DNA of 64,000 bases from Rhodocyclaceae bacterium (GCA_041916775.1 JAYRYZ010000001.1:295825-359824), one strand, 5' to 3'; counted from the stretch's first letter, positions 35,574-48,538 are shown. Notes: generated by a model not told the origin, from the letters alone. Numbers and translations are program-made.

Positions 35574-38300
35574 TTACGCCGTTCGCTGCGCTCGATCGCG
35601 GTTCACGATCCGGTTGCGGCCCTGCCGCTTTGCGTCGTAGAGGGCGGCATCCACCGCCTCGAGCAGGGACTCGGGCGTATCGGTGCCGACCCGGTAAGCG
35701 ATGCAGCCCAGGCTGATCGTGACGTGATCCGCCACATCCGAGCGTGGGTGAGGGATCCTCAGCGCATCCACGGCTGCACGCATCGCCTCGGCGACCGCAG
35801 CGACACCGTCCCGGTCCGTCATTGGCAGGATCGCGACGAACTCCTCGCCGCCGTAGCGGGCGAACAGGTCGGTGGGACGGTTGAGCCGTGTCCGCAGGGT
35901 TTGGGCGACCTTGCGCAGGCACTCGTCGCCCTTGCCGTGGCCGAAGTGGTCATTGAAGGCCTTGAAGTAGTCGATGTCCAGCATGATGACACCGAGCGGC
36001 TTGTTGCCGCGGCTGTGGCGCTTGATCTCGCGCTGCAGCGTCTGGTCGAAGTGGCGTCGGTTGGCGACCTGGGTGAGGCCATCGATCTGCGACATCTCCG
36101 AAAGCAGGTCGGTGGCAATCTTGAGATTCATGTGGGTACGTATCCGCGCCCGGATGATGTCTCCGTGATAGGGCTTGGTGATGTAGTCCACCGCGCCCAG
36201 GTTGAGCCCTGCTGCCTCGTCGCTGACCTCGCTGAGTGCGCTCACGAAGATCACCGGGATGCGGCTGGTGGCGGCGTCCTCCTTGAGCGCACGGCAGACC
36301 TCGTAGCCGTTCATCCCGGGCATGACGATGTCGAGCAGGATGAGATCCGGAGGGCGCTGCCCGCGCACGATCTCCAGCGCCGCCAGGCCGCCGCTCGCCA
36401 CCTGGACGACATACTCGTCCTTGAGCAAATTGGCGAGCACCTTGATGTTAGCCGGCATGTCGTCGACGATGAGCAGGGTGCGGCGCGCCTCCTGCGCGGT
36501 CGTGTCGGCGGGATGGGACGTCGCCGGACGCGGCTCGGCGCTGCCTTCCTCCGTATCCAGCCATTGTTCCAGCAGCGCGAACAGTTGCTCGCGGGTGAAG
36601 GGCTTGCCGAGATGCGCGTTCATGCCGGCGGCCAGCGCGTGCGCTCGGTCTTCGGCGAGGTTGGCTGCGGTCAGCGCGATGATGGGGATCTCGCGGTCGT
36701 GGGTGCGGATCTCGCGCGCGGCCTGGTAGCCGTCCATGACCGGCATCTGCACATCCATGAGGACGAGCGCGAAGCCGCCTGCCCGCGCCCGGGCCACACC
36801 TTCCGCACCGTTCGTCGCGACGGAGACTTGCAGGTTCAGCGATGCAAGCTGCGCGCGAGCAACGTCCTGGTTGATCGGATTGTCCTCGACCACGAGCACA
36901 CGCTGCCCGCGGAAGCGACGGCGGAGCGTACGCGGTGTGTCGCCCGGCGAGGCCATGTCGGCCTCCGCTGCAGGGGGCAGGTTGAGGTCGAAGCTGAAAC
37001 GGCTGCCCTTGCCTGCCTCGCTCTGCACCTCGATCCGACCGCCTCCCATCAGGCCGACCAGCGCCTCGCTGATCACCAGCCCGAGCCCGGTGCCGCCGTG
37101 CTGCCGGGTGCTCGAATTGTCCACCTGACTGAAGGCCTTGAAGAGGCGGGATTGCTGCTCCGGCGTCATCCCCACGCCGGTGTCGCTCACGCTGAAGCGC
37201 AGCCCGACGGCCGCAGGTGTGCGCTCCCGGCATTCGATCGTGAGTTCCACATGGCCCTGGTCGGTGAATTTGACTGCGTTACCGATCAGGTTCGCGAGCA
37301 CCTGTGTCAGCCGCAGGGGGTCGCCGATGAAGTATCCGGGCAGATCGGACGGGACCTGAAAGCGCAGCGTCAGGCCTTTCATGCCGCTCGGCAGCGAGAA
37401 CAGCACCGTGAGTTGGTCCAGCACGTCGCTCAACGCGAAGGGGCGTGCCTCGATCTTGAGGCTGCCGGCGTCGATCCGTGAGAAGTCCAGCAGGTCGTTG
37501 ACGATGCCCAGCAGCAACTGGCCCGAACGCTGGATCTGCTCCGTGCGCCTGAGCACATGAGCGGGCAGGCGTTCGTCGAGCTGCAACTCGCTCAGGCCGA
37601 TGATCGCGTTCAGTGGGGTGCGGATCTCGTGGCTCATGTTCGCGAGGAACTCCGACTTGACCCGGTTGGCGGTTGCGGCCGCTTCCTCGGCTTCGCGACG
37701 CCTGCGCATCACCGCAAGCAGGGTCGCGATTCCGGCGACGCACATGAGAAGCCCGATCAGCAGAAGGCTGTTGATCATGCGGTCGCGTACCTCCGCTTCG
37801 GCGCTGCGCGCTTCGACCAGTGCCTCGAGCCGTTGCTTGAAATGCCAGATGCCGGGCTCGAGGTTGCGCTCAGGGCCGACGTCGTTGATCACCGACAGCA
37901 GTCGAGTGCCGGAGGGAAGCGGGTAAGGGTGGGAGCGCACCTCGACGGTCCGCACCGTGCCGTCGGCGAGGCGATGTCGGAAGATGAAGTAGTTCCGTCC
38001 CTGGGATTCAGCCAAGCGGCGTTCGTCGGCCACCTGTTCCGGGCTGAGCGTGTTGATCTCGTCGATACGCATTCGCCTGAGCGTGGTCCGGTCGTAGCCG
38101 TAGAAGACACTTGCCGCGGGGTTGGCGTCGACGATCCGGCCATCGGCAGGATCTATCCACAGCATGGGCAGGTCGTGACGTTCGAAAACTTGCGCGAAAT
38201 CCAGCGCCACCGCCAGTGGTGCCATGCACCACAACAGCAGTGCGAGCGTGGCGTGGAGCAGGCCGGAGATGCGGCGGGAGCGGTTACGATGTGCGCTCAA
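35574..38300 (-). CDS. membrane sensor histidine kinase / diguanylate cyclase hybrid: TM - periplasmic PAS/Cache-like domain - TM - HisKA - HATPase_c - REC - REC - GGDEF (GGEEF)
   Basis: H-box [17 protein letters not shown]; two receiver domains with conserved Asp (LMDVQMP, LLDIVMP); C-terminal GGDEF with RYGGEEF; start proposed at TTG 38300 preceded by GGAGGA RBS; the 1050-aa listed ORF extends through the upstream gene. Confidence 0.78.
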
Positions 38301-38319
38301 GCTTGTCCTCCGTGCTTCG

Positions 38320-48376: not shown

Positions 48377-48395
48377 GTCCAGGTTGGACCTGGAC
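48377..48395 (-). promoter_or_regulatory. 19-bp palindrome GTCCAGGT-TGG-ACCTGGAC next to a TAAAAT -10-like box upstream of the CarH-like gene (candidate operator)
   Basis: perfect 8-bp arms with 3-nt centre; minus-strand TAAAAT at 48375-48370 about 20 nt before ATG 48349; lies inside coding sequence if the gene instead starts at Met 48397. Confidence 0.35.
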
Positions 48396-48538
48396 ATTGA
48401 TGCATGTCATGAGTCGGAGACGACACACGCCGTCGGGAGCCGCTCGCGTTGCGCAGATGCAACAGCGATCGGCTCCCCGGCGGCAGTTCGCGCGCGCATC
48501 TCTCAGTAGCCTGCGGTGAAGCGCCTCCCGGTGTGGCG

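Follow-up and report, generated by a model that had tools for sequence, protein, structure and literature searches.

In the adaptation pathway formed by methyl-accepting chemotaxis proteins (MCP), CheR and CheB, glutamates are reversibly methylated on heptad-spaced Glu-Glu pairs of a coiled coil, and E-E-x-x-A-S/T, with a 7-residue spacing, is the core of the chemoreceptor methylation sites. Methylation-based adaptation can also feed a cyclic di-GMP (c-di-GMP) output, as it does via the diguanylate cyclase WspR in the Wsp system of Pseudomonas. We report here on a sensory locus of a Rhodocyclaceae bacterium (GCA_041916775.1) in which CheB and CheR domains are encoded next to c-di-GMP enzymes and to a CarH-like, B12-binding regulator. 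The DNA analysed is a stretch of 64,000 nt (JAYRYZ010000001.1:295825-359824), called below the window, and all coordinates are counted from its start. The locus, at 35574..48397, consists of large minus-strand open reading frames (ORF) in a chromosome of ~66% G+C.

Three other described systems are close to parts of this locus. In the RsbM-RsbK pair of Bacillus cereus, the signalling helix of a hybrid kinase is modified by a methyltransferase whose gene shares the kinase's operon (PMC4574943). A CheR/CheB fusion of Azospirillum brasilense has been the subject of one genetic study (Wu et al. 2011, Microbiol Res 166:606), as cited in PMC6159551. Finally, the regulator of the locus matches the class I LitR/CarH architecture as defined in PMC9758184.

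A first-pass annotation of the locus had described six genes, with a CheB-CheR fusion and a PAS protein carrying a coiled coil of repeated N-E-E-L heptads (the NEEL coil) as two separate members. We find that there are five genes, one of which is broken. Our preferred reading, to which we give a probability of about 70%, is that of a conserved five-gene sensory cluster whose central CheB/CheR gene has been inactivated in this species.

A CheB-CheR-PAS frame with premature stops

Translation of the minus strand from 47417 to 44463 gave a single continuous frame of 984 codons, called here cheBR-PAS, with two TAG codons in phase, at codons 41 and 637 (TAG41 and TAG637, Table 1). The first is located 5 residues past the GASAGG motif (47310..47327), between ...VVAIGASAGGLEAL and RFF..., and the second between ...RPMQPRGDE and MMLLAFEP..., in frame with the next ORF, an ATG following the TAG directly. 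This second TAG is what had been taken for a 0-nt stop-start junction (45507/45506) between the CheB-CheR gene and the NEEL coiled-coil + PAS gene. As both belong to one frame, the count of six genes was wrong. Moreover, the CheB-CheR fusion gene claimed to start at 47417 is untranslatable as such, the in-frame TAG at 47297..47295 having been overlooked. When aligned, the closest homologues show Glu at position 41 and, at position 637, either Gln or some other ordinary residue.

A homologue search with the read-through product gave at least 8000 matches at E <= 1e-20. When the 120 best homologues were examined, 118 proved to be one-piece proteins, 963-1033 aa long, that align over 97-100% of the query, the other two being the 929-aa product of a conspecific strain and an 859-aa protein from a short contig. 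All copies found in species-representative genomes (80/80) are also a single ORF. The pieces first described as separate genes are therefore one protein elsewhere, and are split here by nonsense mutation alone.

The consequences for the product are severe. TAG41 leaves the Ser of GASAGG (residue 33) on one side, and the His (H of QHLS, residue 60) and the Asp of the CheB triad on the other. Because of this separation, no product can hold a complete Ser-His-Asp triad, hence none can be an active esterase. Across 70 intact homologues, neither the triad (S29/H56/D147) nor the CheR motif varies. In the window copy, neither a CheB triad carried on one chain nor an uninterrupted ORF of ~980 aa was found. 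Pfam domains are still recognised after TAG41 (CheR, E = 6.6e-53; CheR_N, E = 6.7e-16), their expression being doubtful, and downstream of TAG637 (PAS_10, E = 1.7e-23; PAS_4, E = 1.6e-10). In the window strain, the CheR part is in addition cut off from the coiled coil and the C-terminal PAS domains. The other four genes of the locus, unlike cheBR-PAS, retain every catalytic motif. We conclude that cheBR-PAS is a pseudogene in this organism and that its methylation module is most likely dead. The methylation-based adaptation proposed by the first-pass annotation is thus very probably not operating here, codon 41 being a stop as well as codon 637.

A functional fission of the gene could be envisaged, in which CheB-CheR and the NEEL-coil/PAS part would be separate, translationally coupled through TAG-ATG, and would work as two polypeptides. 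The ATG placed straight after the TAG makes termination-reinitiation conceivable, and recognisable domains are kept in both fragments. The split is nevertheless missing from the 118 single-protein homologues and from all 80 genome loci mentioned above, as well as from conspecific strains 99.6-99.8% identical, and the upstream piece is already disabled by the stop at codon 41. The downstream piece, a 347-aa ‘NEEL-PAS’ ORF, had no record on exact-product look-up. Fission would also deprive a PAS-like domain, modelled with confidence, of its final beta-strand. In the AlphaFold2 model of P0002, an intact protein 90% identical (70-sequence alignment; mean predicted local distance difference test score, pLDDT, of 80), the equivalent of stop 2 (Q633) is placed just before the last beta-strand (635-641) of a PAS-like fold spanning 520-641, a block with a pLDDT of 87. 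Taken together, these points leave fission a very slight chance.

Eight conspecific contigs align to the window gapless, at 99.1-100% identity, and TAG41 is present in 8/8 conspecific loci covering codon 41. Three classes of alleles were found: TAG41 only (L001, L088, L089 and L090), TAG41 with TAG637 (the window and L086), and TAG41 with a stop at codon 447, TAG447 (L085, L087 and L091). Both secondary stops are CAG to TAG changes. Codon 637 is CAG in L001 (a Logan contig 99.7% identical, which does have TAG41), in L085, in L087-L090 and in the sister species. Errors of sequencing or assembly have hardly any chance of accounting for the stops. A single-base change would suffice for each of them, but TAG41 is present in 21 independently assembled contigs, where the 40-aa ORF that it makes is recorded from several sequencing projects. 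TAG637 recurs in L086 (run SRR26835462), a contig that matches the window at 100% identity over 3086 bases, the two possibly originating from the same sample.

Three features could speak for programmed read-through or suppression, by which the TAG codons would be decoded and a full-length, possibly regulated protein still be made: all three premature stops of the species are TAG, TAG41 is fixed across samples, and synonymous changes outnumber missense ones within the species. However, two conserved genes nearby naturally terminate with TAG, at matching places in the window and in L092 from the sister species, and 159 of the 230 possible single-base nonsense changes (69%) give TAG, so that three of three has a probability of ~0.33. 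No suppressor tRNA was detected by a tRNA scan of the window. Relatives have ordinary Glu and Gln at the stop positions, and the extra stops found at different codons depending on the strain are a signature of decay. We therefore grant read-through a slight chance. Reassignment of TAG, or pyrrolysine-type decoding, was considered and rejected, TAG being the ordinary terminator of conserved neighbours and the expected mutational outcome. As judged from these alleles, the strain-specific second stops correspond to pseudogene decay, and not to sequencing error, gene fission or recoding.

When the sister species and the window are compared, cheBR-PAS has the lowest ratio of nonsynonymous to synonymous substitution rates (dN/dS) of the five genes, 0.083 as against 0.11-0.29 for the others, which indicates that the gene was under strong constraint until recently. 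Polymorphic sites of cheBR-PAS within the species comprise 8 synonymous, 5 missense and 2 nonsense changes. A McDonald-Kreitman-type table yielded an odds ratio of 2.6 (p = 0.07), and the share of nonsense changes, 2/15 polymorphic sites, compares to 2.6% expected (p = 0.057). This pattern suggests relaxed constraint, without being conclusive.

Part of the function may alternatively have been retained. A restart at the GTG of codon 56 would give an esterase-dead CheR-PAS methyltransferase, useful in the strains having TAG41 only, and lost via TAG637 in the window strain, where the product initiated at this GTG would end at codon 637. Gene callers do predict the 929-aa product from this codon in L001, missense changes are few in the CheR, coil and PAS parts, and dN/dS relative to the sister species is very low. 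On the other hand, no clear ribosome-binding site is found ahead of the GTG, the occurrence of two independent second stops (447 and 637) in a shallow population implies that the downstream part is dispensable, and a very recent inactivation explains the low dN/dS equally well. Partial retention is in our opinion unlikely, and recent inactivation of the whole gene remains the reading that we prefer. A six-gene annotation of the locus, or a study in search of methylation-based adaptation in this organism, would be misled, the key gene being dead.

Layout and conservation of the locus

The six ORFs of the first-pass annotation were all found on the minus strand where it had placed them, and Pfam backed every domain that it had named in them. 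The junctions it had described are also present, namely ATGA overlaps at 47417/47414 and 44466/44463, and intergenic gaps of 66 nt (41752..41817) and 19 nt (38301..38319). The tight, operon-like packing was borne out as well. On the coding strand inside the locus, the promoter/terminator scan returned neither a promoter nor a terminator-like site. An Rfam scan detected neither a riboswitch nor any other RNA in the locus.

Table 1. Features of the sensory locus (window coordinates)
Feature	Coordinates	Strand	Description
Candidate promoter/operator	48370..48409	-	TGAC(A/T)T block; palindrome GTCCAG-N7-CTGGAC at 48377..48395; -10-like TAAAAT at 48375..48370
CarH/LitR class-I-type regulator gene	47414..48310	-	MerR helix-turn-helix, B12-binding_2 and B12-binding; 298 aa from TTG 48310
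cheBR-PAS, most likely a pseudogene	44463..47417	-	984-codon frame: CheB, CheR, PAS-like, NEEL coiled coil, PAS_10, PAS_4; two premature TAG
Premature stop 1	47295..47297	-	TAG, codon 41; ancestral GAG (Glu); inside CheB domain
Premature stop 2	45507..45509	-	TAG, codon 637; ancestral CAG (Gln)
Five tandem N-E-E-L heptads	45246..45341	-	Residues 693-724; candidate methyl-accepting Glu pairs
PAS-PAS-PAS-GGDEF-EAL gene	41818..44466	-	882 aa; Pfam domains
HK1, soluble hybrid histidine kinase	38320..41751	-	1143 aa; 4 PAS, HisKA, HATPase, REC, HPt (Pfam)
HK2, membrane hybrid kinase/diguanylate cyclase	35574..38300	-	908 aa; transmembrane segment, PAS, transmembrane segment, HisKA, HATPase, REC, REC, GGDEF

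In the PAS-PAS-PAS-GGDEF-EAL protein, the motifs REDD...GGDEF (510-523), EALLR (645), DDFGTG (765) and EGIE (822) are intact. HK1 has HEIRTP, the receiver Asp box and HSLKG, and HK2 has HEIRTP, the receiver Asp box and RPTD...GGEEF at 808-821, with an RxxD I-site. What is expected of a hybrid kinase and phosphorelay (H-box His, HATPase, receiver Asp and HPt His) is therefore all there, with Pfam domains above cut-offs. HK2 starts with a TTG preceded by GGAGGA, and a protein of 908 aa that was called independently is 99% identical to it. None of the five locus proteins reached the cut-off of an NCBIfam equivalog. Among the proteins encoded by 25566..50660, no MCP signalling domain, CheA or CheW was found. 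Since these are missing, the locus is not a chemosensory pathway by membership, though it may work like one.

The same five genes are present in a sister species, on a 65-kb ENA contig (L092), in the order CarH-like (298 aa), CheBR-PAS (980), PAS-GGDEF-EAL (883), HK1 (1142) and HK2 (912), followed by DUF2170, PspA and the DUF3686 ATPase. The five proteins are 73-93% identical to those of the window, identity reaching 99.6% for the flanking pspA. The flanks are the same as in the window, and cheBR-PAS is intact, with GAG at codon 41 and CAG at codons 447 and 637. The arrangement is not due to chance, because its order recurs in the sister species and, in part, in distant genomes. These comparisons show the ancestral order to be a CarH/LitR-type MerR-B12 regulator, a CheB-CheR-PAS-coiled-coil-PAS-PAS protein of ~980 aa, a PAS-GGDEF-EAL protein, a soluble PAS-HPt hybrid kinase and a membrane REC-REC-GGDEF kinase. 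Support for this unit is good, the two kinases belonging to it in some lineages.

The first-pass annotation had assumed that CheB/CheR-PAS modules normally feed a C-terminal kinase located in the same polypeptide, and had called for a comparison with such proteins. This is not the rule in the present subfamily: a kinase domain is listed for 0/120 of the best homologues. The usual partner is encoded separately: the gene that comes next downstream of CheBR-PAS, on its strand, specifies PAS-GGDEF-EAL in 54 of the 72 genome loci that have enough downstream sequence, and a PAS-histidine kinase in 5 of them. One metagenome contig (L152, JFJP01001938.1, 6058..10677) even encodes, directly after a CarH-like gene, a single ORF of 1540 aa with the order CheB-CheR-PAS-like-NEEL coil-PAS-PAS-GGDEF-EAL. 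Such a fusion strongly indicates that the c-di-GMP enzyme works jointly with CheBR-PAS. The functional link first suggested between the two is hence backed both by conserved synteny and by one natural gene fusion.

The place of the two kinases in the system is less clear. They may be mere neighbours, the true unit being made of the carH-like, cheBR-PAS and PAS-GGDEF-EAL genes, and HK1-HK2 forming a separate unit with a promoter in the 66-nt gap. In relatives at 79-80% identity (L081-L083, and L002 from Pseudothauera lacus), the operon does end after GGDEF-EAL, and both HK1 and HK2 are devoid of the QNEEL-type N-terminal helix described below. Against this, HK1-like and HK2-like genes adjoin CheBR/GGDEF-EAL in three contexts. 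They do so in the sister species; with different flanks and no CarH-like gene in GCA_036734105.1 (L093/L094), the HK1-like gene coming after GGDEF-EAL; and upstream of CheBR in Nitrincola schmidtii (L031). Orthologues of HK2 adjoin an HK1-like gene in L092, L093 and L031. Furthermore, the 66-nt gap contains no terminator-like site and no stable hairpin, its folding being no better than that of shuffled sequence (z = +0.99). We find it rather unlikely that the kinases are mere neighbours; HK1 and HK2 vary between lineages and are probably, though not certainly, members of the system.

Some differences were also seen around the partner gene and in other members of the family. The GGDEF-EAL gene differs between the window and L085 by three missense changes (R89G, I320V and N712D) and one codon indel, with zero synonymous change; selection may have been relaxed or altered after the loss of CheBR-PAS, the numbers being too small to test. 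In Thiocapsa sp. KS1 the partner gene is apparently split into two overlapping ORFs (L030, 12849..15199), and extra CheBR fragments are found beside full-length copies in L061 (70..351) and L068 (3901..5109). These cases possibly represent further decay or duplication in the CheBR-PAS family.

The CarH-like regulator, its candidate promoter and the flanks

The regulator was rightly described at first as CarH-like. It has three Pfam domains, MerR_1 (31.3 bits, cut-off 21.6), B12-binding_2 (27.7 bits, cut-off 23) and B12-binding (46.2 bits, cut-off 32.1), and it aligns full-length, DNA-binding domain included, with Thermus CarH (5C8D, E = 1.3e-21). Both hallmark motifs are conserved: Wx9EH is WSAGQLRVWQEH, aligned to WHRGEIGVAEEH of CarH, and ExHxxG (ERHVLG) is found in PPGERHVLG, the CarH counterpart being PPGERHEIG. 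None of the residues W131, E141, H142, E178, H180 and G183 varies among 11 homologues linked to CheBR. With the NCBIfam CarH equivalog NF052513, the score is 90 bits for a cut-off of 400. The regulator is accordingly classed, by sequence, as a family relative of CarH and not as an equivalog.

Its start had been placed at ATG 48397, which falls inside a conserved promoter/operator-like element. The TTG at 48310 is likelier: it is preceded by the ribosome-binding site GGAGAAGG, and orthologues are 298-300 aa long. We consider this TTG the most likely start.

The element itself (Table 1) belongs to an upstream block of the form TGAC(A/T)T...ATGTCCAGGT-N-CTGGAC-G/A-TA-N-AAT, kept in the 80%- and 79%-identity loci, unlike the flanking intergenic DNA. 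Each fetched locus of this species and its two closest relatives that includes the upstream region has one exact copy of the palindrome, ~85 nt ahead of the regulator start, and the 64-kb window as a whole contains a single exact match. A related palindrome, TTGTCCnGGACAA, is found 17-19 nt upstream of a GATAAT or CATAAT box in the divergent, Rhodoferax-type loci. These properties fit a putative repressor site overlapping the operon promoter.

In genome loci, the regulator adjoins CheBR-PAS in 8/73 cases, four of them co-directional and four divergent. Metagenomes were scanned for relatives of the regulator with an alignment-based query (A5), a single-protein query having been too specific and having found no relatives. 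CheBR was directly downstream of the regulator relative in 11 of the 49 informative metagenome loci, and other PAS signalling genes, among them a PAS-HAMP-MCP gene, were there in 14 more. In L105, L113-L115, L118, L123-L126 and L135 (for example at 5981..7741 of L113), the gene coming after the regulator relative is not CheBR but an Aer-like PAS-HAMP-MCP gene. This suggests that regulators of this clade are as a rule placed ahead of genes for sensing or taxis, and not of carotenoid genes.

The locus has unrelated flanks, with the DUF2170, PspA and DUF3686 ATPase genes on one side, and a LysR remnant, apaG and purB on the other. The remnant, located between apaG and the CarH-like promoter, is a plus-strand ORF of 110 aa (48449..48781) that has the C-terminal half of a LysR substrate-binding domain only (profile positions 112-208/209). 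This truncated, LysR-type gene is found in all conspecific contigs too, and may testify to an ancient insertion or rearrangement where the sensory locus ends. Directly downstream of the locus, the minus-strand region 25566..35302 encodes DUF2170, PspA/IM30, a DUF3686/AAA ATPase of 1773 aa and three proteins that match no Pfam family. This cluster, from DUF2170 to DUF3686, is syntenic in the sister species, and a match to a sigma-70-like promoter precedes it, at 35373..35345. Elsewhere, the window consists of core chromosome (ftsZ, lpxC, secA, argJ, apaG, purB, secDF, tgt), with a bacterial RNase P RNA of class A at 2025..2410 on the plus strand (312 bits) and a tRNA-Leu(CAA) at 56719..56803, also on the plus strand.

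The NEEL helix, a proposed mechanism and known systems

The heptads of CheBR-PAS are carried by a single helix of ~93 residues (656-748 in the AlphaFold2 model), located between the PAS-like domain and PAS_10. They follow the pattern N-E-E-L-x-(A/S)-(T/S/V), in which the N and both E never vary among 70 homologues whose overall identity is only 58-81%. A partner helix that matches the NEEL heptad is found in the N-terminal part of the PAS-PAS-PAS-GGDEF-EAL protein, ELRVYHAELDIQNQELIAS (44284..44340). The proteins encoded downstream of CheBR-PAS, whether GGDEF-EAL or kinase, open with a helix L-(I/V)-E-x-L-R-(I/V)-Y-Q-x-E-L-E-(I/L)-Q-N-(E/D/Q)-E-L. Conservation of this helix was seen in 65 ORFs of the neighbourhood, which with few exceptions are the gene directly downstream.

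The following mechanism is proposed for the intact operon. In the dark, the CarH-like repressor, bound to adenosylcobalamin (AdoCbl), would occupy GTCCAG-N7-CTGGAC, which overlaps the promoter; in the light, the repressor would be released and the operon transcribed. CheBR-PAS would then be a self-contained module of covalent modification, working without MCP, CheA or CheW, in which CheR would add methyl groups to the Glu-Glu pairs of its own five NEEL heptads, and CheB would remove them. CheBR-PAS may also dock on the QN(E/Q)EL helix of the downstream PAS-output protein, or methylate it, or both, thereby setting its output. Signals sensed by the PAS domains would bias methylation, and the methylation level would in turn set the balance between synthesis and hydrolysis of c-di-GMP. 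The hybrid kinases would probably add a phosphorelay, from the HPt of HK1 to the REC-GGDEF of HK2, as a second route to c-di-GMP synthesis. The light/redox-to-c-di-GMP pathway imagined in the first-pass annotation is thus reasonable for the ancestral operon and for the relatives; in the present organism, its methylation module is most probably non-functional.

The literature searched, which covered CheB/CheR fusions with PAS or GGDEF, the NEEL motif and CarH/LitR together with c-di-GMP, contained no description of an operon with CarH-like, CheBR-PAS and GGDEF-EAL genes, and it reported no substrate for any member of the CheBR-PAS subfamily. Tentatively, we propose that the intact members represent a previously undescribed, MCP-free adaptation module, in which the CheB-CheR-PAS protein would reversibly methylate its own NEEL coil, and maybe the helix of its PAS-GGDEF-EAL or PAS-kinase partner, and which would be light-switched via the B12 repressor in a subset of bacteria. 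The repeated, independent stops found in this species would then record a recent loss of memory, possibly under selection. This proposal may be correct, but we hold it to be doubtful at present.

Several points weigh against the reading developed here, or against parts of it. The 8 synonymous changes, set against 5 missense ones, leave room for residual constraint downstream of codon 41, possibly via the product re-initiated at GTG codon 56. HK1 and HK2 do not come after the operon in the relatives at 79-80% identity, so that their link to the module may be local. The CarH-like gene is missing from 65 of the 73 CheBR genome loci, as well as from L094, and light control is therefore an accessory feature. 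The proposed operon promoter was not among the calls of the promoter scan, and its -35 region is poor. Lastly, the likeness of the NEEL heptads to the methylation core of MCPs, E-E-x-x-A-S/T, is a presumed one.

If the proposal is true, c-di-GMP signalling gains a memory like that of chemotaxis, reversible glutamate methylation reaches beyond chemoreceptors to the control of a second messenger, and CarH-type regulators get a signalling target instead of a photoprotection target. The uncharacterised pairing of CheB-CheR-PAS with a c-di-GMP enzyme that bears a matching helix, occasionally fused to it, is widespread, with at least 8000 homologues. Culturable relatives have intact operons, among them Pseudothauera lacus D20 and species of Rhodoferax, Rhodobacter and Thiocapsa, which makes the hypothesis directly testable.

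Compared to the MCP and Wsp systems, the locus lacks the MCP domain, CheA and CheW, and has the modifying enzymes and the putative acceptor helix in one polypeptide. In the proposed CheBR-PAS module, the output enzyme would be reached without a CheA phosphorelay.

With class I CarH/LitR regulators (Thermus thermophilus CarH 5C8D, Bacillus megaterium LitR, Myxococcus CarH), the window regulator shares the MerR helix-turn-helix, the four-helix bundle with Wx9EH and the Rossmann domain with ExHxxG. Like them, it heads a presumably repressed operon and lies beside a palindromic promoter element. It differs by its surroundings: the window gene and its relatives are found beside signalling genes (CheBR, PAS-MCP, PAS-HK, GGDEF-EAL), and not beside carotenoid or photolyase genes.

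The proteins annotated by the Joint Genome Institute (JGI) as ‘two-component system CheB/CheR fusion protein’ have the same order, CheB-CheR_N-CheR-PAS, and homologues of cheBR-PAS carry this name. Unlike them, the window copy is a pseudogene, and its subfamily has no kinase domain, a helix of five NEEL heptads and a GGDEF-EAL partner.

RsbM-RsbK, as described in PMC4574943, differs in that no demethylating partner is mentioned, that the substrate is a kinase and not a GGDEF-EAL protein, and that there is neither a NEEL repeat nor a B12 regulator. It nevertheless has, like our proposal, a dedicated methyltransferase encoded beside a sensor substrate that is not an MCP, and a coiled-coil helix that sets the output. 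By analogy, RsbM-RsbK is thus the best experimental precedent for the mechanism proposed here.

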